A stretch of DNA of 64,000 nt from Candidatus Poribacteria bacterium. Its GTDB lineage: Bacteria > Poribacteria > WGA-4E > GCA-2687025. Below, one piece after another: positions 6,778-26,757 of the stretch; position 1 is the stretch's first letter; each line of letters opens with the position of its first letter. The notes under the pieces were generated by a model. It had not been told where the DNA came from. It ran no database searches and was given only the letters and a program-made list of their open reading frames with translations. The translations under genes were made by a program, and so were the position numbers. The stretch lies in the NCBI GenBank assembly GCA_963665845.2, contig OY762492.1:928001-992000 (forward strand), given 5' to 3'.

Positions 6778-7046
6778 CAGATATTGAGGCTTTAGTTGGG
6801 ACGTGCCGGCGGACGGACGCGGACAGTTTCTGCGGCGCCTCTAGATTCCCGCTTGCGCGGGAATGACAAAGTGAGGTCGCATGTCGTTTTGTTCCCCCTT
6901 GAAAAGGGGGCTAGGGGGGTTTGATCCGCAAGGGATGGACTCTGGATTCCCGCTTGCGCGGGAATGACGGCGTGTAGTATGGACGCTTACGGTGAACTCG
7001 GACAGCGCCTGCGGCGCCTAAGATTCCCGCTTGCGCGGGAATGACG
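6778..7046. repeat. Mosaic intergenic repeat cluster: three ATTCCC-N8-GGGAAT palindromes, one CCCCCTTGAAAAGGGGG palindrome and a degenerate MITE end
   Basis: ATTCCCGCTTGCGCGGGAATGAC at 6845, 6946 and 7023; second palindrome near 6894; GGCTTTAGTTGGG shared with 41230. Confidence 0.9.
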
Positions 7047-7093: not shown

Positions 7094-10000
7094 CTACAAC
7101 AGCTCCCCGCGCACCATCAGCGCCGACGAAACGGCGAAGTAGTCCCGCCCCGCCTCCACCCTGTCTTTCAGATAACTTAGGCTAAGGTTCAGGTCGGCGC
7201 GCACATGGCGGCTCAAACGGTATCCAAGCTGCAGCGCCGTCTGGTAACGCTCCGAGCGCTCTTCGGACTGGTCGCCGAGATTCCCGCGCCGAACGACCGC
7301 CGTCAAGTAGTTCGTCACGTTTAGGTTCTGCTCCAACTTCACAACCGTTCCGATGATCGGAACGCGCCAGCCGGACGCCGTTTTCAAGGTGTAGTCGACG
7401 CTCATGCTGGGCGTCACGATGATCGAGTTCGTTTCCACGCCGCTGCGCTCCTGGCGCCTAAAGTTGATGCGGCTGCCGAGGGACAGGCGCGTTTCGCCCA
7501 TCGTCTGCCGCCAGGTGAGCGCGCTTTCATGGGAGCGGCTGTCCCCAAAAATGGAGGCGCTGTTGGAACGCTCCGTCGTGTTGAAATTGTAGCTGAGCTG
7601 AATTGTGGAGCGTCCGCCGCGGGCGAATATCTGTGCGTCCGCCCCGGCGAGAAGCGAGTCGTCTTGAGAACCTGCGCCGACATTTTTTGTGTAGCTGTCG
7701 CGCATTGAGGCGTCCGCGCTGAGCGCGAGCCATTGAAGCGGATCGAACGACCCGCGCATCGACAGGCGGACGGAGCGCGTGGACGAGGAACGCTCCGGCG
7801 CGTCCTCCGGCATGCGCAGCGCGTCCAGGACCGTCGCGTCCAATTTCAGCCTGCGCAGATAATCGCGTATGTCGATGCTGTAATCGGCGCTGAGAGCCAG
7901 CGTGTTAACGGAGCGCTGAAACGGGTTCAGTCCGTCGTCGGCGAACCGATCGCGCCCGCCGGCAAGGGCGCGGTCCATCTGCATATTTCCCGCCCCAAGC
8001 CAGTCGGCGCGGTTCAGCTGCGCCTCCTCATAGGCGTACGGATCGTATCCGTACTGGCTCATGCGGTCGAGGCTCTCCTGCTCGCGGAAAAAATCCTCGT
8101 CCATCTCGACCGAATCGAGCGGCGGCGTATTCGATGAGCCGCTTGGCAACGGGGGAGGATTCGTTTCGGTTGACTCGTCTGTCTGCGCGGTCTCTTCAGC
8201 CGTCTCCGTTTCGGTTGAATCGTCCGTCTGCGCGGTCTCTTCAGTCGTTTCCGTTTCGGTTGACTCATCCGCCTGCGCAGTCTCTTCAGCCGTTTCCGTT
8301 TCGGTTGAATCGTCCTCATCCGCCTGCGCGGTCTCTTCAGCCGTCTCCGTTTTGGTAGAATCGTCTGTCGCGGCAGTTTCTTCTGCCGTTTCCGTTTCGG
8401 TAGAATCGTCTGTCGGCGTTGGCTCGTCAGCCGCTTCTGTTTCGGTTGAATCGTCTGTCGCGACGGTTTCTTCTGCCGTTTCCGTTTCGGTTGGCGCGGT
8501 CTCTTCAGCCGTTTCTGTTTTGGTAGAATCGTTCGCCGGTGCGGTCTCTTTTTCATCCGCTTCGGCGCCGTTTTCTATAGCAAGGGGACCGATGCCCGGT
8601 CCGTCCATCGGCTCCGTCCGCTTCGTTTCAAAACTGAAGAGCTCGGCGAGCCGAAAGGTGGCGCCGAACCGCGCGTTGAAGTTGAGCGAGATGTCTTTTT
8701 GCTGTTCAAACCAGTTCTCCCGCGCGTTCATCTGCGCCCCGATATTCGGACGCGCGCCGAAAAAAGAGCGGTTGATTGTCGGACGAAGCGACACCCGATG
8801 CCCCCGCTCCGACAACCCAAAACGCCCCTCCGATTTCCCCTCCTCCGTAGAAGACAGCGCCATCTCCCGCGTCACATCGTAGGTCGGCTGAAGGCGCAGC
8901 GACGCAAACGGGCTGAGCTGCAGACTGATCGAACCGCTGTCGATGATGCGGTCGTTCAGGCTGCTGCCGTAGTACCCGTAGTCGCCGCCGTCGGAGGCGT
9001 TCGGGTCTCCCGTTTCGCGGTCAACCCTCACATCCTCGTGCCGGTATTCGGCGTTCAACCCGAATTTGCGCGCCGCGTCGTACCGCAGCGTCGCCACGTA
9101 GAGATCGCTGAACTCGGTGCCGCGGCTTTCGTTCCAATGCTCCTGCGAGTCGTACATCACATTCAGCGAGGGCCATTTCTGAAATTGAACGCCGCCGCGC
9201 GCCGTGCGGTTGGAGACCGTATTGCGCCCCAGCTGCGCCGTCCGAATGAGGTTGTAACTCTCTTCGGTTTCGGTTTCCTGATTCCGGACGCTGTACTCCA
9301 GCGGAAGCCACCGCGCGGGCGTGAAACGCGCGTTCATACTGAAATCGTTTGCGCTCTGGCTCAACTGCTGATACCGCCTGCCGTAAGAGGAACCGGCGGG
9401 CTGCGCGGCGGACTCTTCAAACTCCTGATCTTGGCTCGACGCGCTCACCTGCACCTGCAGCAGATTTCCAAGCCGAAACTGGCTGTCCCCCCGCCGCGCC
9501 CAGCCCGACTCAACAAGCGGATCGGCGAGGTAGATGTCGTTCACCCACAGCTCGCCTTCCATCGTCTCGCCGGTCTCGTTCTGAATGCCCAGAACAACGC
9601 CGCCGACGCTTGTCAAGGAGGGCGAACCGGCGACGCGCAGCCCGTCCGGATGCCCGTCTCTGTTCTCGTCCGCTATCGATACGACCGCCTGCTTCCAGCC
9701 CGTGAAATCGATGGGGAGGGTGTATTCGTAGTAATCGACCAGCTCCTTGAACACATTCACCTTCGGCTCCTCCTTGTCGGCGCCGCTCCCAGTGTGACGG
9801 TAACTATAGGAGAAGTTGGAACGCAGCGCCGCGCTCAACCGCAGCACCAGCGACGCCCCCGTCGGACGCCCCGCCGGGTTGTAGACCCATATCTTGAGCG
9901 TCTGATGCTTGGAAAGGTCGGCGCCGTCGCCTTGGCGCGGTCCCTCAACCCGCCGCCAGGTGACGCCCAGAGAGTCGGGGTCCAACCCGTACTCCAGCGC

Positions 10001-13000
10001 GAGCGACTGCTCCCGCCGTTCCGTCACGCCGAGCTGGTACGCCGATTGAACCAGCGGATGCAGCCGTTGAAATTCGTCGTTGTCTTCGATCTGCTGATAG
10101 GCGAAGCGGTAGGAGTCGAAGTTGAAGTTGTCTTTGGCGCTGACCCGCATATATTCGCCTGTGTCGGGGCGCAGCTCGCCGTCTTTCCCGGCGACGACCC
10201 CTTGCTCCCACTGGTTGCCGACGATTTCAAGCGACGCAAACTGCAGCTTGCCCGTTATCGTCCCAGGGCGGTTTTTTTCAAGCAGAATGCGCGCCTGTTT
10301 CACAAAACCCCAGTTCGGCAGCCCGACAGGCTCCGTCTCGTTCAGCGGGATGGAGAGAAACTTCCAGCCGGTCGCCGCGTTCTCTTTCTTGATCCAGCTG
10401 TCCGGGATCGCGTTCAGCGGAACGGCGATGGTGAAATAGGAATTGAGCGTGTCCAGCGCGCTGTCGCCGTTCAAGTCCTCGGTGTCCAAGATCGTGTTGT
10501 TGGCGCCGATGCGCATGTCGGAGAGGGGTCCGTTCCAAACCCAGCCCTCATCCTCGTTCAGTTCCAGCTTGCCGTTGCCCCGAAACTTGTCCTCGTCCGA
10601 CAGATTTTCTAGGTCCAGATCCAGCAGGTCAATCACATTGTCGCCGTTCGTGTCGGTCAGGTCGGGCGGCAGGTCTTCGCTGTCGAGTCGGTTGTCGCCG
10701 TCCACATCCTCGCTGAAATGCCCGACGGCGATATGGAGCGTCGCGCTGTCGTCGCCGACGGAGCGTATCCACACCTCCAGCGATTGCCTGTTCAGATAAT
10801 CTTCTCCCTCGGCGCTGATCGGATAGGTCATCCCGCCCCACTCGGCGGAGACGTCGTTGAACAGGTACCCGATTTCGCCGATGAGCCGCTCCTCGCCGCC
10901 TCTGGGTATGCCGTCAATGGAGGAGGAGGCGACGCGCTGATTGCGGAAATAGTTGTCGGGCGGGTTGTCGTCGTCGCGCTGCTGAATCGGAAAATGAACG
11001 CGGGAGAAGTTGGACAGGCGCGGCGTTTCTGCAGGCGGCGCGGCGGTCTGCCATCGGCGTTTGAAAACCGGCATGGAGGAGGAGTCGCGCGCGCCTTCCA
11101 TGCTGTCGATGAGCGCGAGTCCGTACGAGTTCGGGTTGTTGTGGCTGAAAGCCGCCTCGCCGCTAAAATGGAGCGCGAGCGGCAACTTGCCGACATCGAC
11201 AAACGGAAGCGCGCTGACCAACCCCGACAGCTCAAAGGCGCGTCCGAGGCTTCCGTTCACATCGAACGCCTGAAGCCGCCCTGGCGTCTCGGCGATGGAT
11301 GGCGGACCGGCGGTACGCTGCCCGGCGTTGTAAATATACCCCGCCGCCAGCTGAAGCCCATCGATAAAGACAGGGTTGAAAAAACTGCCGGAGGTCAACC
11401 CGTACGCGCGGCGGGAATAGCTGCCGCCGTACGAACCGCCGTAGCTTCCCCCGTATCCGCCGTAGGAACTGCCGCCGTAACTGCTGTATGAGGAGCCGTA
11501 CGAACTGCCGCCGTATGAAGAGCCGTAGGAACTCCCATATGAGGAGCCGTACGAACTGCCGCCGTATGAGGAGCCGTACGAACTGCCGTATGAGGATCTG
11601 CCGCCGTATGAAGCGAGCGCTTGATCCAGCATATTCGACTGCGCGTCCCGCGGGTCTTCCTGCCGCTTCGGCGTCCACTCGTAGCTAAGCCAGACGCCCG
11701 CGACGGTCTGTTGAAGCGACGAGCCGAACGGGGAATACTCATACTCCACCTCCACCTCGTCAAACTCGCTCAAAGGGCGGTTGAAGGTGAGCGAGCCGAA
11801 TTCGTAAAAGATGTTGTAGTCGCCGGGCGCGAGCCGCTGTCCGTTGACGCGCACAATTTCGCTGCCGGGGATGATGTTCAGAACGTTCAGGTTGTACTCG
11901 TCCGAGCGGTAGGAGTAGGCGGCTTGAATTTGGTAGATCGGCGCGTTCGGGTTGTGCGAATCGCGGTAGAGCGCTAGGTTGGCGACCTCCTCCTGCAAAT
12001 GCGCATACGGATGCGGAGCTTCCAGCGCAAAGGGGCGCGCGTCAGGGAAAATAAGAAGCCCCTTTTCAAAGTCGATGATGAGCGAGTCGTATTGCCCGTC
12101 GCCGTCCCTGTCGTATTCGATGTCGACCCGCCCGTCGCCGTCCCTGTCCAACCCAAAAATCTGGATGTACGGGATCAGGTTGCCTGACTCGTCTTGGTGC
12201 GCCTGTTTTCCGCCTCTCCATATCGCCAGTTCAAAGTCGGTCGGGCTGATGTTGCGGTTGCCGAGGCTATATACATTCATCAGCTCCGTTCCGCGCAGCG
12301 ATTCCTGTTTTAAGACGACATGCCCGTCTTCCGCAAGCGGATTGCCCTTTTCTGGGTCCGGGTCGCCGACGGTTCCGCCGCCGGCGCCGACATACTCATA
12401 CGCGGCGACAATCTTGACGCGCGGCGACACCTGGTTGTTAAACTCAATGCGCCCCGTTTCGTAGTCGATGGCGTAATTTTCGCCGGCGTGTTGCAGGTTG
12501 AAATAACCGTCGATGGTCTGCGTCCCGGCGACATTGTTCGTTCCGTCTCTGTCATCGATATAGATGCGTTCGCTGTTGCGTTTGATGGGCAGATATTCGG
12601 GGTGTATTTCTCCATCTTCGCCGAGATGCAGCTGATAGTACTTCTGGCGGGCGAAGCTGGTGTCGGCGATCCGTCGTCCGCCGCCTCCGCCGGCGCGTCT
12701 GGACTGCCCGCTCGATTTCCATTTGCCTTTCAGCCCTTTCGTTCGGGAGCCGAAGAGCGTCGCGCGCGCGCCGCCCGCCTCGGCGACCAGCTGCGCGCCG
12801 AACAGGTTTCTGTTCATGCGCACAAAGCGCGTGTTCGGAAGTTCCAACGTGATGTCGCCAAAAGCGGCGCGCTTGACGATGTTCTCTTCTCCGCCCTCAT
12901 ACCAGACGGCGATGCGCTGCTGCTTCTCTCCGAAGCCGGTATAGGAACGCGCGGCGTCGGAATAGTCGACCGCCACATGCGTGTGCCGCCCGACGCGGCC

Positions 13001-13711
13001 GTGGATGCCGATCTGCAGCTCTTGGCGTATGTTGAACCCGTCGGCGCCACCGCCGTATCCGCCGTAGGAGGAACCGAAACCGCCGCCGTATCCGCCGTAG
13101 GAGGAACCGAAGCCGCCGCCGTATCCGCCGTAGGAGGAGCCGAAGCCGCTCCCGCCGTATCCGCCGTAGCCTCCATATCCGCCGTAAGAGCCGTAGCTGT
13201 CGTAGGAGCTGCCGTAGTCGAAATCGCGGTAGCCTGTGGAAAAACGCCCGCCGCCGAGGCTGCTGCCGTAGAGTCCGGTCAAGCCCTCGCGCCCGAAATA
13301 GTGCGTGTGGTTATACTGAAACAGGAACGATTTATGCCCCTTCACCTCTAGGCTGGAGTTGAGCGGCAGGTTGAAATTGGCGGCGCCGCCTCCTCTTCCG
13401 GCTCCTAGAGGGAGATCGCTTTCAAGTTCGGGGACGCCGCCTTCCGGAAGGGCGGCGAGCAATCCTGCCCCGTTCGTCCGCTGCGCGCGGTGATGCGAGA
13501 TCGCCGCGGCGATGAGTCTGGCGGCGTAGGAATCGCTTTCCGCTTCGCCGTCCATTTCGTCTGTTGTTTGAGAGGGTTTCCAGTCGCCGCGCGTTTCAGC
13601 GCTGGGGGCGAATTCGCGGGCGGCGTTCTCTTCATCGGTCTGGGCGGAGCATAGAAAAGCCGCGCCGAAAAGAAGCGCCGCTGCCGCCAAACGAGGCGCA
13701 AAGCATGTCAA
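7094..13711 (-). CDS. Very large SprA/Sov-like outer-membrane protein (T9SS translocon-like) with low-complexity inserts
   Basis: Signal peptide; segments recalled as SprA-like (ELMNVYSLG, IDFEKGLLIFP..RPF, NIIPGSEIVRVNG..L..GDYNIFYEFGSL, LIDSMEG, LDTEDLNGD..LDT.NSYF); alternating beta-strand pattern in the C-terminal half. Confidence 0.72.
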   Translation of the reverse strand: MTCFAPRLAAAALLFGAAFLCSAQTDEENAAREFAPSAETRGDWKPSQTTDEMDGEAESDSYAARLIAAAISHHRAQRTNGAGLLAALPEGGVPELESDLPLGAGRGGGAANFNLPLNSSLEVKGHKSFLFQYNHTHYFGREGLTGLYGSSLGGGRFSTGYRDFDYGSSYDSYGSYGGYGGYGGYGGSGFGSSYGGYGGGFGSSYGGYGGGFGSSYGGYGGGADGFNIRQELQIGIHGRVGRHTHVAVDYSDAARSYTGFGEKQQRIAVWYEGGEENIVKRAAFGDITLELPNTRFVRMNRNLFGAQLVAEAGGARATLFGSRTKGLKGKWKSSGQSRRAGGGGGRRIADTSFARQKYYQLHLGEDGEIHPEYLPIKRNSERIYIDDRDGTNNVAGTQTIDGYFNLQHAGENYAIDYETGRIEFNNQVSPRVKIVAAYEYVGAGGGTVGDPDPEKGNPLAEDGHVVLKQESLRGTELMNVYSLGNRNISPTDFELAIWRGGKQAHQDESGNLIPYIQIFGLDRDGDGRVDIEYDRDGDGQYDSLIIDFEKGLLIFPDARPFALEAPHPYAHLQEEVANLALYRDSHNPNAPIYQIQAAYSYRSDEYNLNVLNIIPGSEIVRVNGQRLAPGDYNIFYEFGSLTFNRPLSEFDEVEVEYEYSPFGSSLQQTVAGVWLSYEWTPKRQEDPRDAQSNMLDQALASYGGRSSYGSSYGSSYGGSSYGSSYGSSYGSSYGGSSYGSSYSSYGGSSYGGYGGSYGGSYGGSYSRRAYGLTSGSFFNPVFIDGLQLAAGYIYNAGQRTAGPPSIAETPGRLQAFDVNGSLGRAFELSGLVSALPFVDVGKLPLALHFSGEAAFSHNNPNSYGLALIDSMEGARDSSSMPVFKRRWQTAAPPAETPRLSNFSRVHFPIQQRDDDNPPDNYFRNQRVASSSIDGIPRGGEERLIGEIGYLFNDVSAEWGGMTYPISAEGEDYLNRQSLEVWIRSVGDDSATLHIAVGHFSEDVDGDNRLDSEDLPPDLTDTNGDNVIDLLDLDLENLSDEDKFRGNGKLELNEDEGWVWNGPLSDMRIGANNTILDTEDLNGDSALDTLNSYFTIAVPLNAIPDSWIKKENAATGWKFLSIPLNETEPVGLPNWGFVKQARILLEKNRPGTITGKLQFASLEIVGNQWEQGVVAGKDGELRPDTGEYMRVSAKDNFNFDSYRFAYQQIEDNDEFQRLHPLVQSAYQLGVTERREQSLALEYGLDPDSLGVTWRRVEGPRQGDGADLSKHQTLKIWVYNPAGRPTGASLVLRLSAALRSNFSYSYRHTGSGADKEEPKVNVFKELVDYYEYTLPIDFTGWKQAVVSIADENRDGHPDGLRVAGSPSLTSVGGVVLGIQNETGETMEGELWVNDIYLADPLVESGWARRGDSQFRLGNLLQVQVSASSQDQEFEESAAQPAGSSYGRRYQQLSQSANDFSMNARFTPARWLPLEYSVRNQETETEESYNLIRTAQLGRNTVSNRTARGGVQFQKWPSLNVMYDSQEHWNESRGTEFSDLYVATLRYDAARKFGLNAEYRHEDVRVDRETGDPNASDGGDYGYYGSSLNDRIIDSGSISLQLSPFASLRLQPTYDVTREMALSSTEEGKSEGRFGLSERGHRVSLRPTINRSFFGARPNIGAQMNARENWFEQQKDISLNFNARFGATFRLAELFSFETKRTEPMDGPGIGPLAIENGAEADEKETAPANDSTKTETAEETAPTETETAEETVATDDSTETEAADEPTPTDDSTETETAEETAATDDSTKTETAEETAQADEDDSTETETAEETAQADESTETETTEETAQTDDSTETETAEETAQTDESTETNPPPLPSGSSNTPPLDSVEMDEDFFREQESLDRMSQYGYDPYAYEEAQLNRADWLGAGNMQMDRALAGGRDRFADDGLNPFQRSVNTLALSADYSIDIRDYLRRLKLDATVLDALRMPEDAPERSSSTRSVRLSMRGSFDPLQWLALSADASMRDSYTKNVGAGSQDDSLLAGADAQIFARGGRSTIQLSYNFNTTERSNSASIFGDSRSHESALTWRQTMGETRLSLGSRINFRRQERSGVETNSIIVTPSMSVDYTLKTASGWRVPIIGTVVKLEQNLNVTNYLTAVVRRGNLGDQSEERSERYQTALQLGYRLSRHVRADLNLSLSYLKDRVEAGRDYFAVSSALMVRGELL
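8160..8560 (-). repeat. Intragenic acidic tandem repeat (DDSTETETAEETAQT-type, about 8-9 units)
   Basis: Directly visible in DNA and protein. Confidence 0.9.
11415..11625 (-). repeat. Intragenic (G)SSYG tandem repeat
   Basis: Repeated GAGCCGTACGAACTGCCG units; SSYG protein repeat. Confidence 0.9.
13050..13270 (-). repeat. Intragenic GFGSSYGGYGG (33-bp) and YGG repeats
   Basis: Three near-identical 33-bp units at about 13050-13150 plus YGG repeats. Confidence 0.9.
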
Positions 13712-14337
13712 GGGAGTCTCCGTTTCGTTGACGTCGTCTGGCGGTATGAACGAACGGCGGGCGCCGCTTGTTTACTTTGAAAGTGAATTGACCCGCTTTC
13801 GGCGATCAGCTCATCCAGCGGAACATCCCACGGCATCGGCTCAAACAGAGCCGTACGCTGACAATCGAAAGCGAGTCCAATCAACCTTGGGCGCGGCTCC
13901 TCGGCGAAGAAGCGGTCATGGAACCCGCCCCCAAGCCCGATGCGGTTTCCTCGGCTGTCGACGGCGGCGCATGGGATCAGCGCGGCGTCCAGCGCCTCTT
14001 TCTGAACGCGCGGCGCCGTCAACGGCGGAGCAGGTATGCCCCAGCGTCCGCGCTCCAGCTGGCGCATGTCGGTCAGCTCGTAGAGACGCATCGTTGTCGA
14101 GTCGGTCTCCACGCGCGGAACGGCGACGCGCCCGCCCTCAGCCCAGAGCCGCTGGATGAGACGCCGCGTCGGCGCTTCCGGGGGGACGCTCACATAACAG
14201 TACACAAGGCGCGCGTTCAGCGTTCGGAGGCGTTGAACCGCCCGCCGTTGAATCTGTTCGCCGCGCCGCCGGCGTTCTTTTTGAGAGAGGCTTCGGCGCC
14301 GTTTGAGCGCGCTGCGCCGTATCGCGTTGACGGTCAT
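13708..14337 (-). CDS. ygfA: 5-formyltetrahydrofolate cyclo-ligase
   Basis: VPRV, WGIPAP, D.ALIPC.AVD..G.RIGLGGGFHDR, EPMPWDVPLD motifs. Confidence 0.9.
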   Translation of the reverse strand: MTVNAIRRSALKRRRSLSQKERRRRGEQIQRRAVQRLRTLNARLVYCYVSVPPEAPTRRLIQRLWAEGGRVAVPRVETDSTTMRLYELTDMRQLERGRWGIPAPPLTAPRVQKEALDAALIPCAAVDSRGNRIGLGGGFHDRFFAEEPRPRLIGLAFDCQRTALFEPMPWDVPLDELIAESGSIHFQSKQAAPAVRSYRQTTSTKRRLP

Positions 14338-14621
14338 TTTTTGTAGACCGTCCGCCCCTGTATCTCGATGGCGTCCACGATCGCCATGACGACCGCGTCG
14401 ACAGGCTTGTCGGCGGTCGACTTCGTGAGCCGGGCGGAGCTTCCGCCGGCGACCAGAACCACCTCTTCTTCGCCCGCGCCGACCGAGTCGATGGCGACGG
14501 CGTGCCGGTCAAGCAGGCTTCCGTCTAGGCTCATCTCTTGGACGACGAGCAGTTTTCCGCCGGCGAGCTTTTCGTCTTTTTGCGTGGCGACAATCGAACC
14601 GACCACTTTGCAGAGCGTCAT
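14334..14621 (-). CDS. BMC shell vertex (pentamer) protein, EutN/CcmL family
   Basis: VVGSIVATQKDEKL.G.KLLVV, VAIDSVGAGEEE.VLV.GGSSAR, PVDAVVMAIVD. Confidence 0.95.
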   Translation of the reverse strand: MTLCKVVGSIVATQKDEKLAGGKLLVVQEMSLDGSLLDRHAVAIDSVGAGEEEVVLVAGGSSARLTKSTADKPVDAVVMAIVDAIEIQGRTVYKK

Positions 14622-15910: not shown

Positions 15911-16065
15911 CGCGGCGGCAGGGGGAATCGTGAATCTAGCAGACGGCGTCTGTATGCCGGCGTGTTCAAACGAAAGCCTTAAGGTCGGGAGCTGGACGCT
16001 TGCAAATATCCGCCTTTGGGGTATCATAACCTAAAGAAACGGGCAGCCGCAGAAAGAAGGATCCG

Positions 16066-17379
16066 ATGAAACGAATGATTGCCCTTGCCGCCGCCTTGTC
16101 CATCGCGGCGGCGGCGTTCGCAGAAAATTTGACGATTGATCCGAACAAACTGAAACAGATTGCGGAGGAATCAAGCGTGATAGCCGCCTTCGAACAGAAC
16201 ATGCAAACAGACGAGCAATTTCAGACCGTCATGCGCTTCATTCTGCCGGACCCAGGCGAAGCGAAATGGCGTCAGATACCATGGACGCCCGACATCTGGG
16301 AAGGCAGAATTCGAGCCGCGCAGCAAGAAAAACCGATGTTCATCTGGGCAATGAACGGCGACCCGCTCGGCTGCGTCTGAAACAACGGCGTGACGGGCCG
16401 TGCGTCCGTCTTCTCCGACGACCGAGTCATCAAAATACTCACCGATCAATTCATCCCTGTCGCCGACAACTGCTCCTTCACGCAGATTCAAAAAGACGCC
16501 GAGGGCGAGTTCTTCCGCAAAGTTGCTGAACAGGGGCATTACGCCGGCAGAACGAAGCCGACCGGCACCCGCCAGGGTCTCTACGCCTGCGCGCCGGACG
16601 GCGAGCTGCTCGCCTCCATCAACACGACGCGCGTTGAGCATGTCCTGAGCATGCTGAACAAGGCGCTGGAAAAGTGGAACAAAAAGAACCCGACGGCGGA
16701 TGTTCCCGCCTCCTATGAAAAGGACAAGTATTTCAACCGCTCCTTCCCTGAAGGCGCGCTCATCCTGCGCGAAACGATGCGCGACATCCCGCGCAAAGAC
16801 AAAAGCGGCGATGAAATCCAGACCTGGAAGCACAACTTTGACCATCTCTGGATACGGAAAGAGGAGGCGCAGGCGCTGATTCCCGACAACCCAAAGGCGG
16901 GCATGGAATATGAGGCGCCGAAGGAGCTGGTACGCCGCATCGCGCAGTACCATCTGGTTGATCATGTTCGGGGCGAGGCGCCGCCTTGGCATGACAAGCA
17001 TCTCCAAAAGGCGGGGTTGACGCTGCGCGTTGAATCCGTGGACGAAAACGCCGTGACGATACGTCTCGACGGGCATGCGTTTCTCGAAGCGGAGCCGTCG
17101 GGGCAGACGAACCCGTATTCAGGCTTCAAGATCGACATGAAACGCGGCATGGACGCCAAGATCAAAGGCGTCATCCGCTACAACCGAAAGACGAACGCCT
17201 TTGAGCAGTTCGACATGGTCGCCGCCGCTTCCCGATGGGGCGCGACGACGTACAACTTCCGGCAGAACGACCTCGGCCCCGCTCCGATCGGCTTCGCCTT
17301 TGAGCTGATACCGAGCGAGCCGAGAAATCAGACACCGCCGAAGTTCCTTTTGGGATCCTACTTTAGAAACGGCAATTGA
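16066..17379 (+). CDS. Candidate exported thioredoxin-fold selenoprotein (437 aa by read-through of TGA 16378-16380)
   Basis: ORFs 16066-16380 and 16390-17379 are in the same frame, separated only by TGA-AAC-AAC-GGC; context WAMNGDPLGCV(U)NNGVTGRASVFSD; signal peptide; SECIS-like hairpin. Confidence 0.82.
16392..16410 (+). promoter_or_regulatory. Putative bacterial SECIS hairpin
   Basis: GACGGGC-CGTGC-GTCCGTC: 7-bp stem beginning 11 nt after the UGA, with G at loop position 2. Confidence 0.68.
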
Positions 17380-17401: not shown

Positions 17402-17430
17402 CGTCATTCCCGCGTAAGCGGGAATCCAGA
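17402..17430. repeat. dRS3-like palindrome GTCATTCCCGCGTAAGCGGGAATCC
   Basis: Same family as the 6845 copy, opposite orientation. Confidence 0.9.
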
Positions 17431-17486
17431 GTCCTGCAGAAGACGTCCGCGTACCCATGCCGACATGCTGAAACTAAAGCCTCTCG

Positions 17487-17522
17487 CGGCCGGGGAGATG
17501 GATCTCCCCGGCCGTTTCTTTC
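17487..17522 (+). terminator. Intrinsic terminator between convergent genes
   Basis: Perfect inverted repeat CGGCCGGGGAGAT-GG-ATCTCCCCGGCCG followed by TTTCTTT. Confidence 0.75.
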
Positions 17523-20733: not shown

Positions 20734-21942
20734 TTAAAAAATGCGTTTGACGCGCCGTTTTTTCGCTGTCCACAACACAGCGCGGATCGCATCCTCGGCG
20801 TCGTTTTCGTCCATGCCCGGCCAAAGCGGTATGCTCAAAACGCGCTCATAAAGCCGCTCGGCGTTCGGAAAGTCGTCCTGCGCCGACCGGCAGCTCTTGC
20901 GGTAATGCGTAAAGCGGTGGAGCGGGATGTAATGTACGGCGGTTCCAATGTTCAGCGCCTCCAGCTCGGCGGCGAAGGCGTCTCGGCTCACCGACAGCCG
21001 ATCCAGGTTCAACTTCAGTATATAAAGGTGCCACGCATGCCGTCCGTTGTCGGGTTCAGGCGGCGTCTCCAGCGCGTCCGCGTCCGCGAAAGCGTCCTGA
21101 TACATCCGCGCGATGCGCCGCCGTATCTCCATCTGCCGCTCCAGTTTCTCCAGCTGCGCCAGCCCGACCGCCGCCTGAATGTCGGTCATGTTGCACTTAT
21201 ACCCTTGCGCCGTCACATCATACGCCATGGCGGGTTGCTCGGCGTTGGCGCCGCTTTGGTCCGCCTCGCGCGTCCAAGCGTCCCGCGTGATCGCATGATA
21301 GCGGATGGCGCGGACGCCGTCGGCGAGCCGGCGGTCGTTCGTTGTCAACATGCCGCCCTCAATGGAAGTGATATGCTTCGTCGGGTAAAAGCTGAAGGCG
21401 GACGCATGCCCGACCCCGCCGATGCGCTTGCCGTTGTGTTCAGCGGCGACCGCATGCGCGGCGTCGTCCAGCAGGAGAAGATCATGCGCGTCGGCAATCT
21501 GTTGAAGGGCGGTCATATCGCATGGGTAGCCGGCGAGATGAACGGGTATAACCGCCTTCGTTTTTGGGTTAAGGGCGGCTTCAACCGTTTCAGGATCGAC
21601 ATTCAGCGTCGTCGGGTTCACGTCTAAGAAGCGAACCTCCGCCCCGGCGTGTAAAACGGCTTCGGCGGTGGCGGTGAAGGTGTAGACGGGAACAAGGACA
21701 TTGCCGCCCCGCCCGACGCCCGCGGCGACCAGCGCCAGATGCAGCGCGGCGGTGCATGAGTTGACGGCGACCGCTTCATCGGCGCCGACCGTTTCGGCGA
21801 AGCGCCGCTCAAAATCGCCCGTTTTTTGTCCGGTTCCGATCCACCCTGAACGGAAAGTTTCGGCGACCGCGTCAATCTCTTCAGAGCCTGTCCATGGCCG
21901 GTACAGATGCAGTTTTTCAGCCCGTTTGGGCGGCGGATTCAT
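20734..21942 (-). CDS. DegT/DnrJ/EryC1/StrS PLP sugar aminotransferase
   Basis: NSCTAALHLAL, TFTAT, DAAHA, SFYPTKHIT..EGGM. Confidence 0.95.
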   Translation of the reverse strand: MNPPPKRAEKLHLYRPWTGSEEIDAVAETFRSGWIGTGQKTGDFERRFAETVGADEAVAVNSCTAALHLALVAAGVGRGGNVLVPVYTFTATAEAVLHAGAEVRFLDVNPTTLNVDPETVEAALNPKTKAVIPVHLAGYPCDMTALQQIADAHDLLLLDDAAHAVAAEHNGKRIGGVGHASAFSFYPTKHITSIEGGMLTTNDRRLADGVRAIRYHAITRDAWTREADQSGANAEQPAMAYDVTAQGYKCNMTDIQAAVGLAQLEKLERQMEIRRRIARMYQDAFADADALETPPEPDNGRHAWHLYILKLNLDRLSVSRDAFAAELEALNIGTAVHYIPLHRFTHYRKSCRSAQDDFPNAERLYERVLSIPLWPGMDENDAEDAIRAVLWTAKKRRVKRIF

Positions 21943-22077
21943 GGAAGCCTCTCATCGCCGATTTCACACGCTGCATATGATGCCGCATGCGGCGGCGGAC
22001 GGCAACATTGTCGACGCCGCCGGTCGTCATTCCCGCCTCTGCGGTAAAACGCGCGGGAATCTTAGGCGCCGTTTCTG

Positions 22078-22094
22078 TTGGCATAAAAATTGCT
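22078..22094 (+). promoter_or_regulatory. Sigma-54 (-24/-12) promoter motif upstream of WD40 copy 1
   Basis: TTGGCATAAAAATTGCT = GG-N10-GC, matching the TGGCA-N6-TTGC consensus. Confidence 0.75.
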
Positions 22095-22132
22095 TACTTC
22101 TTTTTACGAACAAGGCGATTGGAGGGCGGCGG

Positions 22133-24403
22133 ATGAGATCAACGGCAATTTTGATGAGCGCATCGGCGCTGTTTTTTGCGGTTTCGGCAAGCGGCGTCGA
22201 TGTTCAAATGTATGAGGACGCGATCGATCTGTCGCGCAGAACGGGCAACTGGGGTACCGTTTATGCAGCCGCCTTTTCTCCCGACGGCAAGACGCTCGCG
22301 ACAGGCGGCATAGACGACTCGCTTGTGTTATGGGATGTTGACACAGGGCGCGCCCTGCGCCGTACCGTCGGACATGATCGGTCCATTAATGCGCTTGCGT
22401 ATTCGTCCGACGGCGCGCAGCTCGCTTCCGGCGACTACGGGGGAACCATTCATATATGGAACGTGAAAACGGGCGCGCTGAAAACGACAATCGATGAACA
22501 AACGGAAGTGATTCGCTCGCTGGCGTTTCTGCCGGACGGCAAGACGCTTCTCAGCTCCGGCAACGGCGTATGGCATTGGGATGCCGAAACGGGGGAGCTG
22601 ATCAAACAGCTGGGCGAAGGTTCCAAAACGTACACCGCAATGACGTTATCGTCCGATGGACAAATTGCCGCCGGCGCTGTGGACGAGTTCGGAAGCGCGA
22701 ACGACGCGGTCGTATTGATAGAAGTCGACACCGGCGCGTTGATGAAACAGCCATGGCGCGTCAGCTACATCCGGTCGCTCTCTTTTTCTCCCGACCGCAG
22801 ACGGCTTGCCGCCGCCGGCATCAGAGAAATAATGGTATGGGATGTGGAAACGGGCGAGAAGATCTACTCCATTGAGGACGATGCTTCCGCGTCCCAAATT
22901 CATTTTTTGCCGGACGGAGAACGGCTTGCTGTCTTGAGAAGCGCAACCTTTTGGATTTACAATCTCAAAACGGGGGAGCGCGTCCAGATCGCGTCCAGAT
23001 CGACCGTCTGGCCCGACATAGCGGTGTCGCTGGACGGAGAAAGAGCCGCGTTCCCCTTGGCAGGCGGCGCCGTCCAGGTATGGAACCTGAACGGCGGGAA
23101 CCTGCATTCAACGTTTGGCGGCGAAAACACTGGCGCGATCTATTCAGCCGCCTTTTCGCGCGACAGCAAAACGCTCGCCGTCGGCTCGGTCGACGGCGCC
23201 GTCCGCCTGTGGGATGTCCCGACGCTGCGCTTCCTGCACAAGCTCTGGATGGCTCCGTATTCTTATCAATACATCCAATCGGTCAGCTTTTCTAGAGACG
23301 GGAAAACAGTTCTCGGCGCCAATTTCGTGGACATCGCGCTGTGGGATGTGCAGACGGGTCAGTTCAAAAGAGCGCTCGGAGACGAATATAATCGCCAAAA
23401 CAGAAACACCAACCCTGCCGTCTATTCGCCGGACGGAGAAACGATCGCAAGCATACGGTATGAGTACAGAAACCGAAACGGCGTCTCGATCATTGAACTG
23501 CGAGACGCCGGCGCCGGCGAATCGGCCAAAGAGATCGTTATCGGAAAAGGATGGTATTCACAGTCGTTCATGTCCTATTCGCCCGACGGGCGGACGATTG
23601 CGCTGGCAGGCTCGCTGTTTTTCAATGTTGAAACGGGTCGGCTCCGAGCGACCGTCACGCATCATTCCTCCGCCTATAGCTTCGCTTATTCGCCGGACGG
23701 CGGAACCTTCGCTGTCGGGCATAGAGACGGAACCGTCACGTTCTGGAACGCGCAGACCTACAAGCGGATACGAAAGATTCTGTCGCAACCGATCACTGAC
23801 CGGACACCCCTTTATGCCCGCTATGTCGATGCAGTCGCGTATTCGCCGGACGGTCGGACGCTTGCCAGCGGCGGCGTTGACGGGCAGGTACGACTCTGGC
23901 AGGCTGAAACAGGCGAGCTGAAAGCCGTTTTGAAAGGGCATACCGGCGGAATCGACGCGCTCGCGTATTCGCCGGACGGGCGTTATCTTGTCAGCGGCTG
24001 CTCTGACGGTTTCCTTCTGCTCTGGAACGCGCGCCGAGGCGAGCAAACGCCGATTCAATGGGCGGACATACGCCTCCCAGAAAAAGCGGCGGAAGACGCA
24101 AACGCGCCCGCGGCCCCTGCCCTCCTGCAGAATTACCCAAACCCGTTCAACCCTGAAACGTGGATCCCCTTCGACCTGGCGGAAACCTCCCGCGTCCGCA
24201 TCGCCATTTACAACGGCGCGGGCGAACTGATCCGCGCGTTAGACCTTGGAACGCTGCCGGCGGGCTACTACCGAAGCCGACAAAAAGCGGCTTACTGGGA
24301 CGGACGCAACGACCTCGGCGAACGCGCTGCCAGCGGCGTCTACTTTGCGCGCATAGAGGCGGGGTCGTTCACGGCGGTTCGGCGCATGGTTCTGTTGAAA
24401 TAG
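22133..24403 (+). CDS. Secreted WD40-repeat protein with C-terminal T9SS-CTD/FlgD-like Ig domain, copy 1 (756 aa)
   Basis: GGAGG RBS then MRSTAILM signal peptide; many (F/Y)SPDG..LA..WD repeats; LLQNYPNPFNPETWIPF...WDGRN..GE..ASGVYF tail. Confidence 0.92.
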   Translation: MRSTAILMSASALFFAVSASGVDVQMYEDAIDLSRRTGNWGTVYAAAFSPDGKTLATGGIDDSLVLWDVDTGRALRRTVGHDRSINALAYSSDGAQLASGDYGGTIHIWNVKTGALKTTIDEQTEVIRSLAFLPDGKTLLSSGNGVWHWDAETGELIKQLGEGSKTYTAMTLSSDGQIAAGAVDEFGSANDAVVLIEVDTGALMKQPWRVSYIRSLSFSPDRRRLAAAGIREIMVWDVETGEKIYSIEDDASASQIHFLPDGERLAVLRSATFWIYNLKTGERVQIASRSTVWPDIAVSLDGERAAFPLAGGAVQVWNLNGGNLHSTFGGENTGAIYSAAFSRDSKTLAVGSVDGAVRLWDVPTLRFLHKLWMAPYSYQYIQSVSFSRDGKTVLGANFVDIALWDVQTGQFKRALGDEYNRQNRNTNPAVYSPDGETIASIRYEYRNRNGVSIIELRDAGAGESAKEIVIGKGWYSQSFMSYSPDGRTIALAGSLFFNVETGRLRATVTHHSSAYSFAYSPDGGTFAVGHRDGTVTFWNAQTYKRIRKILSQPITDRTPLYARYVDAVAYSPDGRTLASGGVDGQVRLWQAETGELKAVLKGHTGGIDALAYSPDGRYLVSGCSDGFLLLWNARRGEQTPIQWADIRLPEKAAEDANAPAAPALLQNYPNPFNPETWIPFDLAETSRVRIAIYNGAGELIRALDLGTLPAGYYRSRQKAAYWDGRNDLGERAASGVYFARIEAGSFTAVRRMVLLK

Positions 24404-24416
24404 GAGGCGCGCGGCG

Positions 24417-24433
24417 TTGGCATAAAATTTGCT
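24417..24433 (+). promoter_or_regulatory. Sigma-54 promoter motif upstream of WD40 copy 2
   Basis: TTGGCATAAAATTTGCT. Confidence 0.75.
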
Positions 24434-24471
24434 TCTATCTTCTGCAGATGAGGCTGCTGAAAGGATACGTT

Positions 24472-26757
24472 ATGAAAGCGACAGCATTTTTGATGAGCGC
24501 ATCGGCGCTGTTTTTTGCGTCTTCGGCGAAGGGCGTAGATGTTCAGATGTACGAGGACGCGATCGATCTGTCGCGCACGACGGGCAACTGCGGAACCGTT
24601 TCTCCAGCCGCCTTTTCTCCAGACGGCAAGACGCTCGCGGCCGTCGACTTAAACGATACGGTTGTGTTCTGGGAGGTTGATACAGGGCGCGTCCTGGGCC
24701 GTATCGGCGGACGCGCTCGGTCCATGGATGCGATCGCGTATTCGCGCGACGGGACGCAGCTTGCTTTCGGCTACTACGGGGGAGATATTCATATTTGGGA
24801 TGTGGAAACAGGCGCGCTGAAAACGGAGATCGATGAACAAACGGAACCGGTTCGCTCGCTGGCGTTTCTGCCGGACGGCAAGACGCTTCTCAGCGCCGGC
24901 AGAGGCATACGGCATTGGGACGCCGAGACGGGGGAGCTGATCAAGCAGCTTGACGAAAGTACCAAAACGTACACCGCAATGACGTTATCGTCCGATGGAC
25001 AAATTGCGGCCGCCGCTGTGAACAAGTACAGAAACGCGGACGGCGTCGTATTGAGAGAGGTTGATTTGAGAGAGGTTGACACCGGCGCGTTGGTGAAACA
25101 GTTTGTTCATTCATGGCGCGTCGGCTCCATCCGCTCGCTCTCTTTTTCTCCCGACCGCAGACGGCTTGCCGCCGGCGGCTCCGGAGGAATGATGATATGG
25201 GATCTGGAAACGGGCGAGACAATCTACGCCCATGAGGAAGGCAACTACGATACCGCGTTCAAAGTTCATTTTTTGCCGGACGGAGAACGGCTTGTTGTCC
25301 TGGCAGGCTCAGCCTTATGGGTCTACAATCTCAAAAGGGGGGAGCGGGTCCGGATCGCATCCAGATCGATCGCATCGCCCGCTGTAGCGGTGTCGCCGGA
25401 CGGAGAAAGAGCCGCGTTCGCCTTGGGAGGCGGCGGCGTCCAGATCTGGGACCTGAACAGCAGGAACCTGCATTCAACGTTTGGCGGCGAAAACACTGGC
25501 GCGATCTATTCAGCCGCCTTTTCGCCCGACAGCAAGACGCTCGCTGTCGGCTCCAGAGACGGGGGCGTCCGCCTATGGGATGTCCCGACGCGGCGCTTCC
25601 TGCACAAGTTCTGGCAGGCTCCGTACTCATACTACAGTATCGAATCGGTCGACTTTTCGAAAGACGGAAAAACGGTTCTTGGCGCCAACCATGTCGACAT
25701 CGCCCTGTGGGATGTGGAGACGGGGCAGTTCAAAAGGGCGCTCGGAGACGAAATCGGCCGTCTCTTTAGAAACACAACTCCAGCCGTCTATTCGCCGGAC
25801 GGAAAAACAATCGCAAGCATTCGATATGAACATAGAGACGGCATCCTCTTCCCAATCATTGAGCTGCGGGACGCTGAGACGGGGCAAGCGACCCAGAAGA
25901 TTGCGGTCGGCAGGGGTGTGCCTTGGCTGGCGTTCATGGACTATTCGCCCGACGGGCGGACGATTGCGTTAAAAGGCTCGCTGTTTTTCAATGTTGAAAC
26001 GGGGCGGCTCCGAGCGACCGTCACGCATCATTCCGACCCCTTCTGCTTCGCCTATTCGCCGGACGGAAAAACCTTCGCTGTCGGACATAGGGACGGAACC
26101 GTCACCTTCTGGAACGCGCAAACGTACAAGCGGATCCGGACGATCCAGGCGCAACCTAGAGCTGACCAGACGCCCCGTTATCACCCTTATGTCAATACGA
26201 TTGCATATTCGCCGAACGGACGGACGCTAGCCAGCGGCGGCGTCGACGGGATGGTTCGGCTCTGGCGGACAGACAATTGGGCGTTGAAAGCGGTGTTGAA
26301 AGGGGATGCGAGATGGGTCGGCGTCCTTGCTTATTCGCCGAACGGGCGTTATCTCGTCAGCGGCTCCTACGACGGAACCTTGCTGCTCTGGAACGCGCGC
26401 CTAGGCGAGCAGACGCCGATTCAATGGGCGGACATACGCCTCCCAGAAGACGCAAACGCGCCCGCGGCCCCTGCCCTCCTGCAAAATTACCCAAACCCGT
26501 TCAACCCTGAAACATGGATCCCCTTCGACCTGGCGAAAACCTCCACCGTCCGCATTTTCATCTACAACGGCGCGGGCGAACTGATACGCAAATTAGACCT
26601 GGGAACGCTGCCGGCGGGCTACTACCGAAGCCGACAGAAAGCGGCTTACTGGGACGGACGCAACGACCTCGGCGAACGGGCGGCAAGCGGGATCTACTTT
26701 GCGCGCATAGAGGCGGGATCGTTCACGGCGGTTCGTCGCATGGTTCTGTTGAAATAG
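24472..26757 (+). CDS. Secreted WD40 protein with CTD, copy 2 (761 aa)
   Basis: AAGGA RBS, MKATAFLM signal peptide; paralog of copy 1. Confidence 0.92.
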   Translation: MKATAFLMSASALFFASSAKGVDVQMYEDAIDLSRTTGNCGTVSPAAFSPDGKTLAAVDLNDTVVFWEVDTGRVLGRIGGRARSMDAIAYSRDGTQLAFGYYGGDIHIWDVETGALKTEIDEQTEPVRSLAFLPDGKTLLSAGRGIRHWDAETGELIKQLDESTKTYTAMTLSSDGQIAAAAVNKYRNADGVVLREVDLREVDTGALVKQFVHSWRVGSIRSLSFSPDRRRLAAGGSGGMMIWDLETGETIYAHEEGNYDTAFKVHFLPDGERLVVLAGSALWVYNLKRGERVRIASRSIASPAVAVSPDGERAAFALGGGGVQIWDLNSRNLHSTFGGENTGAIYSAAFSPDSKTLAVGSRDGGVRLWDVPTRRFLHKFWQAPYSYYSIESVDFSKDGKTVLGANHVDIALWDVETGQFKRALGDEIGRLFRNTTPAVYSPDGKTIASIRYEHRDGILFPIIELRDAETGQATQKIAVGRGVPWLAFMDYSPDGRTIALKGSLFFNVETGRLRATVTHHSDPFCFAYSPDGKTFAVGHRDGTVTFWNAQTYKRIRTIQAQPRADQTPRYHPYVNTIAYSPNGRTLASGGVDGMVRLWRTDNWALKAVLKGDARWVGVLAYSPNGRYLVSGSYDGTLLLWNARLGEQTPIQWADIRLPEDANAPAAPALLQNYPNPFNPETWIPFDLAKTSTVRIFIYNGAGELIRKLDLGTLPAGYYRSRQKAAYWDGRNDLGERAASGIYFARIEAGSFTAVRRMVLLK

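Follow-up and report, generated by a model that had tools for sequence, protein, structure and literature searches.

A Candidatus Poribacteria gene with a conserved in-frame TGA codon, predicted to encode an uncatalogued thioredoxin-fold selenoprotein

Introduction

The window, i.e. the whole stretch of 64,000 nucleotides of a Candidatus Poribacteria bacterium analysed here (contig OY762492.1, positions 928,001 to 992,000), contains two consecutive open reading frames, of 104 and 329 amino acid residues, which share one frame and are stored in databases as two proteins. The question that this locus raises is whether these are indeed two genes, or a single one in which the internal UGA specifies selenocysteine (Sec), and, in the latter case, what kind of selenoprotein it would encode. 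A preliminary description, made from the sequence alone, had proposed a hidden exported selenoprotein with an in-frame UGA in a C-V-U context.

Gene organization

By inspection of the sequence, the start ATG is at 16066, the in-frame TGA at 16378–16380 and the terminal TGA at 17377–17379; the codons around the internal TGA read GGC TGC GTC TGA AAC AAC GGC GTG, in the frame of the 329-residue reading frame. The single frame noticed beforehand was thus borne out, as were the remarks that the second reading frame has no convincing ribosome-binding site (no Shine-Dalgarno-like sequence is present upstream of GTG 16390) and that standard annotation splits the gene. Promoter-like and terminator-like sequences flank the frame on either side:

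16000..16027, + strand: sigma70-like promoter candidate, TTGCAA-16-TATCAT (9/12 matches; consensus match only)
16056..16061, + strand: Shine-Dalgarno-like GAAGGA, preceding ATG 16066
16066..17379, + strand: proposed single read-through gene, 437 amino acid residues, a continuous frame whose only internal stop is the TGA of codon 105
17486..17515, + strand: intrinsic terminator candidate, facing the convergent ilvC

The gene neighbours are a PD40/TolB-like gene and the convergent ilvC, and neighbourhood clustering of the family loci gave no conserved partner gene and none hinting at a substrate. Among RNA runs only relatives of the gene were observed, as contigs; one of these, of 1391 nt, spans from 16050 to the terminator, a weak hint of transcription across the frame that gives neither the strand nor single-transcript status. 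A 90%-identical locus labelled Candidatus Poribacteria carries the same TGA.

Conservation of the internal TGA codon

A search of 176 genomes of the phylum gave 23 matches, 11 of which (including G000, the genome of the window) hold the family and 12 a weaker, SCUG-type group. TGA is present in all 17 family genome loci spanning the column, a number that includes the window itself and one locus counted twice, and in all 79 spanning metagenome loci among the best 80 of 111, chosen by similarity (one peptide pattern). Combined, TGA occupies the column in 96 of 96 spanning loci, with 72 distinct 60-mers; the loci are related and were selected by similarity, so that these counts overstate independence. 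The terminal stops of the same genes vary (TGA 34, TAA 10, TAG 9). The residues N, N and G that follow the TGA are kept in 69/72, 71/72 and 72/72 distinct sequences, with synonymous codon variation, and a possible start codon at +4 exists in only 30 of the 72; since amino acids are kept past the TGA and so few sequences have a start there, a two-gene reading cannot explain the data.

The search for homologues with TGA or Cys at this column, suggested in the preliminary description, returned both, TGA in every spanning locus and Cys in two distant homologues. Other residues, TAA or TAG had been named there as evidence against Sec: TAA and TAG never occur in the 96 loci, and Ala, Asp, Arg and Ser were found in four distant homologues; these lie on long branches and leave the Sec reading standing.

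Selenocysteine machinery of the host genome

The components expected for Sec insertion (selA, selB, selC and selD) were all found in G000, with selA and selB adjacent, a selD that is itself interrupted by an in-frame TGA, and a tRNA-Sec with anticodon UCA. A second selA/selB pair lies on contig C3, a 97%-identical copy of a region of contig C1; both small contigs of this genome, C2 and C3, are ~97%-identical copies of C1 regions and probably represent strain haplotypes. TGA is the commonest stop in G000 (660/1403 long ORFs), so that this codon is not generally recoded, and the sole tRNA with a UCA anticodon is tRNA-Sec, tRNA-Trp having CCA. Across the phylum, tRNA-Sec is present in 96 of 101 sampled genomes; the machinery being nearly universal, finding it alongside the gene is a necessary condition and does not discriminate. 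SelB is encoded in 9/9 relatives with an intact family gene and was not found in G057 (80% complete), which has a decayed family fragment (locus L020 on G057:C310, with two TGA and one TAG). In G000 (90% complete), neither a paralogue of the gene nor a SCUG-type gene was observed.

The SECIS hairpin

Behind the UGA, the following structure is predicted:

16392..16410, + strand: candidate bacterial SECIS hairpin (7 bp, 5-nt loop CGUGC, loop starting 18 nt after the UGA)

It is the centroid structure, begins 11 nt past the UGA and has a G in loop position 2, exactly as previously described, and the loop G and U lie at positions 23 and 24 from the U of the UGA, as in E. coli fdhF. In G000, the loop of the selD hairpin likewise starts 18 nt after its UGA. 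The bSECIS rules, as given in PMC13188914, ask for a loop 16–37 nt after the UGA, a G in the first two loop positions, a stem of at least 4 bp and an energy of at most -7.5; in our own implementation of these rules the window hairpin (18 nt, CGUGC, 7 bp, -15.0) lies within all of these bounds. Hairpin energy was nevertheless rejected as proof of a SECIS element, since by itself it is at chance level (z = -0.21 versus shuffles) and the loose consensus passes 39–45% of controls (117/300 terminal TGAs and 159/355 in-ORF positions), versus 60/72 family sequences, 12 of which fail it. A strict geometry, found in 39/72 family sequences versus 0/660, is biased, having been defined on the same family, and a genome-wide survey of TGA codons with hairpins was too noisy for use.

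What exceeds chance in these alignments is the comparative signal, i.e. the invariant TGA, the covariation of the stem and a codon bias under the loop. Among 67 distinct rows, the 7-pair stem has 81.7% of its cells paired and shows 59 double changes; no shuffle out of 500 gave as high a value, a test that sequence kinship can inflate, and slid controls gave 35–45%. The codon of the invariant Arg residue under the loop is CGC in 0/71 sequences, versus 45% elsewhere in the same genes, and CGT in 46/71, versus 12%, a bias that points to selection on the RNA. In around 15 members, most of which encode the conserved Arg by AGA/AGG, the hairpin is shifted 4–5 nt downstream; in the AGA/AGG loci L104, L105, L110 and their relatives the shifted loop is AGUCU-like, giving two SECIS registers in one family. 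Covariation and codon bias across the family support the fdhF-type SECIS-like hairpin that had been suggested, and the invariant TGA, the machinery and the covarying hairpin together favour the hidden selenoprotein with its C-V-U context. Judging from sequence comparison, the two reading frames are very likely one gene, with the internal UGA decoded as Sec.

Two other readings of the locus have to be weighed against this one. The databases hold it as two genes, which would be an exported peptide of 104 residues, terminated by a genuine TGA stop, and a translationally coupled 329-residue protein starting at GTG 16390, and GTG does occur at +4 in 30/72 sequences; yet the stop is never TAA or TAG across the 96 loci, the spacer codons are kept as amino acids, 42/72 sequences have no start at +4, and the split would cut the thioredoxin domain past its first strand and part the signal peptide from the body of the protein, so that we regard this arrangement as very improbable. 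Even harder to credit is a UGA read as Trp or Cys. Trp stands at the column in two database proteins, but the same clusters hold identical N-terminal fragments that end at the TGA (65 contigs versus 1–3), and both the use of TGA as the commonest stop and the anticodons of G000 speak against such decoding. Trp read-through was therefore rejected, the two Trp forms, present as protein records only, being most likely code-4 gene calls.

Domain composition and predicted active site

If read through, the 437-residue product would contain the following elements:

16066..16122, + strand: predicted Sec-pathway signal peptide, residues 1–19 (inspection; hydropathy window 2.43)
16255..16689, + strand: predicted thioredoxin-fold domain, residues 64–208 (AF2 model; DsbH/Thioredoxin_7/AGR/UAS class)
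16372..16374, + strand: Cys103, proposed resolving cysteine (Cys in 68/72 distinct sequences)
16378..16380, + strand: predicted Sec105, in-frame TGA (96/96 loci), at the first-Cys position of CxxC in the 3f9u alignment
16525..16578, + strand: family-specific conserved segment, residues 154–171, ending at the cis-Pro position
16729..17376, + strand: predicted C-terminal curved antiparallel beta domain, residues 222–437 (AF2 pLDDT 93.5)

The predicted signal peptide has a basic n-region, an Ala-rich h-region and an A-F-A cleavage site, in agreement with the preliminary description of the window protein. As a family trait it did not hold: judged by a crude hydropathy threshold, about 23 of the 56 complete members have a hydrophobic stretch at the N-terminus, and export, with a signal-type N-terminus predicted in under half of the members, is not family-wide.

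The structure prediction of the 437-residue product, which had been recommended, gave an AF2 model with a mean pLDDT of 88.7 (below 50 at residues 103–111, which makes the active-site loop unreliable), composed of a thioredoxin fold (residues 64–208) and the beta domain (residues 222–437). The thioredoxin domain is closest to 3f9u (VIA-align Z 12.9, rmsd 2.5, 111 residues aligned; Foldseek E 1.6e-5), and the TGA is located between its first strand and helix, in line with the strand-loop-helix context recognised earlier. The same chain, which tops both fold searches, is also the sole PDB sequence match of the domain profile, with a weak E value of 1.5. In this alignment (E 1.5) to the CVNC motif of 3f9u, Sec105 falls on the first Cys, with Cys103 two residues ahead of it, and Gly108 on the second Cys; Gly171 is matched to the Pro preceding strand 3, the cis-Pro position. 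Gly replaces the second CxxC Cys in 72/72 sequences and the cis-Pro in 71/71. The predicted site architecture is then U-x-x-G preceded by a Cys, as in deiodinases. Thr is present at -1 in 47/72 sequences and Cys at -2 in 68/72, which makes C-T-U the motif of most members; Cys103 is absent in 4/72, one of them an Ala variant. The CxU spacing had been called unusual: a Cys does lie two residues upstream, but the spacing is shared with deiodinases and with four bacterial families of a 2026 catalogue (PMC13188914).

In the family-specific segment (residues 154–171), Q156, G157, H158, Y159, R169, Q170 and G171 are conserved. The beta domain has many invariant charged residues and invariant Arg, Asp and Asn. 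No specific fold match was obtained for it (best Z 6.9, generic; nothing from Foldseek at E≤0.001), a result that does not make the fold a new one.

Comparison with known thioredoxin-fold families

Fold likeness of residues 64–208 extends to 3f9u, 3ph9, 2ju5 and 3ira (Z 12.9, 11.7, 9.9 and 10.1), representing DsbD-gamma-like, Thioredoxin_7, DsbH, AGR-ERp18 and UAS domains. With these the protein shares a nucleophile at the first CxxC position; it differs from them by Sec in place of Cys, Gly in place of the second Cys and of cis-Pro, the conserved insert and the additional 215-residue beta domain. Iodothyronine deiodinases (PF00837) also have Cys-x-Sec in the loop after thioredoxin strand 1, with an occasional Ala for Cys, but belong to a different thioredoxin subclass and lack the extra beta domain; as their profile matched 0/36 family members at E≤0.1, the likeness is best described as a mechanistic analogy, not membership. 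The VPGUxxT selenoproteins (NF041383) and Trx-like Sec.1 (CxU, PF13192) are likewise bacterial thioredoxin-fold proteins with an in-frame SECIS, and differ in motif, length and beta domain; NF041383 gave weak hits in 2/36 members (best E 0.0046) and none for the window protein, and the VPGUxxT motif is absent.

Relation to selenoprotein N

The preliminary description had pointed to a resemblance to the thioredoxin-like region of eukaryotic selenoprotein N (SELENON/SEPN1). Within the phylum, the SCUG-type group (loci L021–L032) has the motif S/A-C-U-G-S-G-K-x-x-R, with TGA in 12/12 loci, and its members are probably SELENON orthologues, judging from this motif. A Poribacteria orthologue of SELENON is reportedly described in an unpublished thesis. 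SCUG is the motif given for SELENON in PMC12839072. The SCUG-type profile matches that of our family with an HH probability of 95.9 (E 5.9e-9) over 66 columns around Sec, with Sec aligned to Sec in the common register U-x-x-G-x-x-x-R, and a eukaryotic 'Selenoprotein N' cluster is the second Atlas hit of the Cys homologue P0348 (0.91, 194/256 features, a scale on which shuffled proteins reach 0.9 in 4–10 of 100). In the thioredoxin-like region the noted resemblance therefore holds. Location may be comparable too, SELENON being lumenal and the window protein predicted to be periplasmic.

The differences are considerable. SELENON and the SCUG-type group have S-C-U-G, whereas the family has C-V/T-U-N (C-V-U-N in the window protein); SELENON has an EF-hand and an N-terminal membrane anchor, whereas the family has no EF-hand and a cleavable signal or none; the thioredoxin domain precedes the beta domain in the family, an order reversed in the SCUG-type group; cis-Pro is lost in the family; and a very long branch separates the two in the tree. 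As judged by motif, EF-hand and anchor, the window protein is not a SELENON member, and its predicted active site appears distantly related to that of SELENON, the likeness holding for the thioredoxin part. Between the beta domain and the domain that precedes thioredoxin in the SCUG group, a motif-level likeness was seen by eye; profile comparison gave an hhalign probability of 0.5–2%, with two weak segments in collinear order (P 0.025 and 0.063), and in Atlas the beta domain alone retrieved hypothetical clusters only, among the matches listed.

The SCUG-type, SELENON-like group is expanded in Poribacteria family f9 (L021–L032, e.g. L023:820-2394; proteins P0146–P0265). Its genes are also split in databases, non-Sec paralogues occur (C-G-A/G-S-G), and the group is absent from the accessible part of the 2026 catalogue. 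Some arrangements look tandem, P0166 spanning from the Sec site of one copy to that of the next.

Extent of the family

An exhaustive search returned 1220 representatives (50%-identity clusters) at E≤0.001. In the best 150 of these, everything N-terminal to the Sec column is missing from 145; the five full-length proteins have Cys (twice), Ala, Asp and Arg at the column, the natural Cys homologues being P0348 and P0387 (protein records). Among homologues of similar length, 106/109 start at or past residue 109. Nearly all of this family of at least 1220 clusters thus appears in databases in the form of truncated hypothetical proteins. A search, itself weak, for longer proteins with the N-terminal part in common gave none. 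The names of the sources include Poribacteria, Planctomycetota, Armatimonadota and Limnochordia; beyond Poribacteria, this range is drawn from metagenome loci and from a small number of names in databases, the single-protein contig search having given one locus.

In P0335, P0109, P0292 and P0326 the family domain is fused to others, among them a Ser/Thr kinase with Kelch repeats (where Asp occupies the Sec column), an ECF sigma factor (where Ser does), and a PQQ-type propeller or further C-terminal domains, which suggests reuse as a sensor module. In the thioredoxin-domain tree (bootstrap not converged), the non-Sec forms are scattered within the Sec forms and most of them have long branches, which fits a secondary loss of Sec. 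The near-exclusive use of Sec, with Cys forms rare, suggests a chemistry that needs selenium.

No family model was present in Pfam and NCBIfam 20.0, the window protein having no Pfam match at E≤1; Rfam gave nothing and plasmids no match. In the accessible part of the 119-family table of prokaryotic selenoproteins (2026, PMC13188914), we noticed no entry with such a motif and none that is SELENON-like, and no description of the family was found in the open-access literature searched. A large thioredoxin-fold family, very likely of selenoproteins, is missing from the catalogues checked. As it is stored truncated and absent from the 119-family list, selenoproteins are undercounted in Poribacteria, Planctomycetota, Armatimonadota and others.

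Proposed mechanism and alternative functions

We propose, as the reading that seems rather more probable than the others, that one Sec-decoded gene gives an exported thioredoxin-fold enzyme with Sec105 as nucleophile and Cys103 as resolving residue. SelB with Sec-tRNA would bind the hairpin behind the UGA, leading to Sec insertion, and the signal peptide would direct the protein to the periplasm. The catalytic scheme, which we hold to be somewhat more likely than not and thus far less secure than the Sec read-through, is that of a selenol reductase: the selenolate of Sec105 would act as attacking nucleophile, with neither a CxxC partner nor cis-Pro, on a specific substrate in its oxidised form, lodged in a cleft that the beta domain forms with the conserved E-Q-G-H-Y...R-Q segment. 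A Cys103–Sec105 selenenylsulfide may then form, by analogy with Cys168–Sec170 of deiodinase 3, where Cys168 resolves Sec170 (PMC12025243); Cys103 would be dispensable in the four sequences without it, as in DIO2. Re-reduction could occur via a DsbD-type relay, the membrane domain of DsbD being encoded in G000, or via small thiols. Since the second Cys of CxxC and cis-Pro are both lost, a dedicated reductase is favoured over a general protein disulfide isomerase.

The protein could alternatively be a selenoprotein of more general function, either a DsbH/TlpA/ERp18-like extracytoplasmic protein thiol-disulfide reductase/isomerase or, in the manner of SELENON, a reductase acting on one partner protein, the beta domain being a protein-binding module. 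The closest folds (the DsbD-gamma-like 3f9u, AGR3, DsbH and ERp18) are in keeping with this, the Ser/Thr kinase and ECF sigma factor fusions suggest a protein-interaction or sensing role, and SELENON is described as a protein-partner reductase (PMC10298544); against it, the hallmarks of dithiol-disulfide exchange, second Cys and cis-Pro, are invariant Gly, and over half of the members have no signal peptide, so that we consider it rather unlikely. We give still less weight to a deiodinase-like reductive dehalogenase of halogenated aromatics, acting through a Cys-Thr/Val-Sec triad. Conserved Glu and His residues lie close to the site, and a relative was found in a sponge RNA library, sponges being rich in organohalogens. 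The prevalence of C-T-U and the single Ala variant, as in DIO2, would also agree with it (PMC12025243), but the family belongs to another thioredoxin subclass, unmatched by PF00837, and is common in non-marine metagenomes too.

A bolder version of the proposed selenol reductase, which we advance only tentatively, would make the family a domain-swapped bacterial sister of SELENON and one of the largest uncatalogued bacterial selenoprotein families, using deiodinase-like Cys-x-Sec chemistry on a small-molecule, possibly halogenated, substrate. If true, it would provide a soluble, tractable model for SELENON chemistry. SELENON is a myopathy protein for which our PDB searches gave no solved relative, and the link to it makes soluble bacterial proteins available for work on structure and substrate.

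Other features of the window

Outside the gene, between its end and the terminator candidate, lies a repeat that occurs genome-wide:

17406..17425, strand not assigned: palindromic repeat ATTCCC-N8-GGGAAT

The repeat, which resembles Neisseria dRS3, has 866 copies on contig C1 and is absent from this site in the contig of a relative; elsewhere in the window it is found at 6845, 6946, 7023, 41577, 46069, 47290, 51540 and 57860. At 7094–13711 (- strand), an exported protein of 2205 residues is encoded, with Gly/Tyr/Ser-rich and Thr/Glu-rich repeats and SprA-like by eye, adjoined by a lone eutN/ccmL gene (14334–14621). Tandem paralogous WD40-repeat genes occupy 21701–26757, and their C-terminal domain is presumably of a Poribacteria-type, sorting-like kind.
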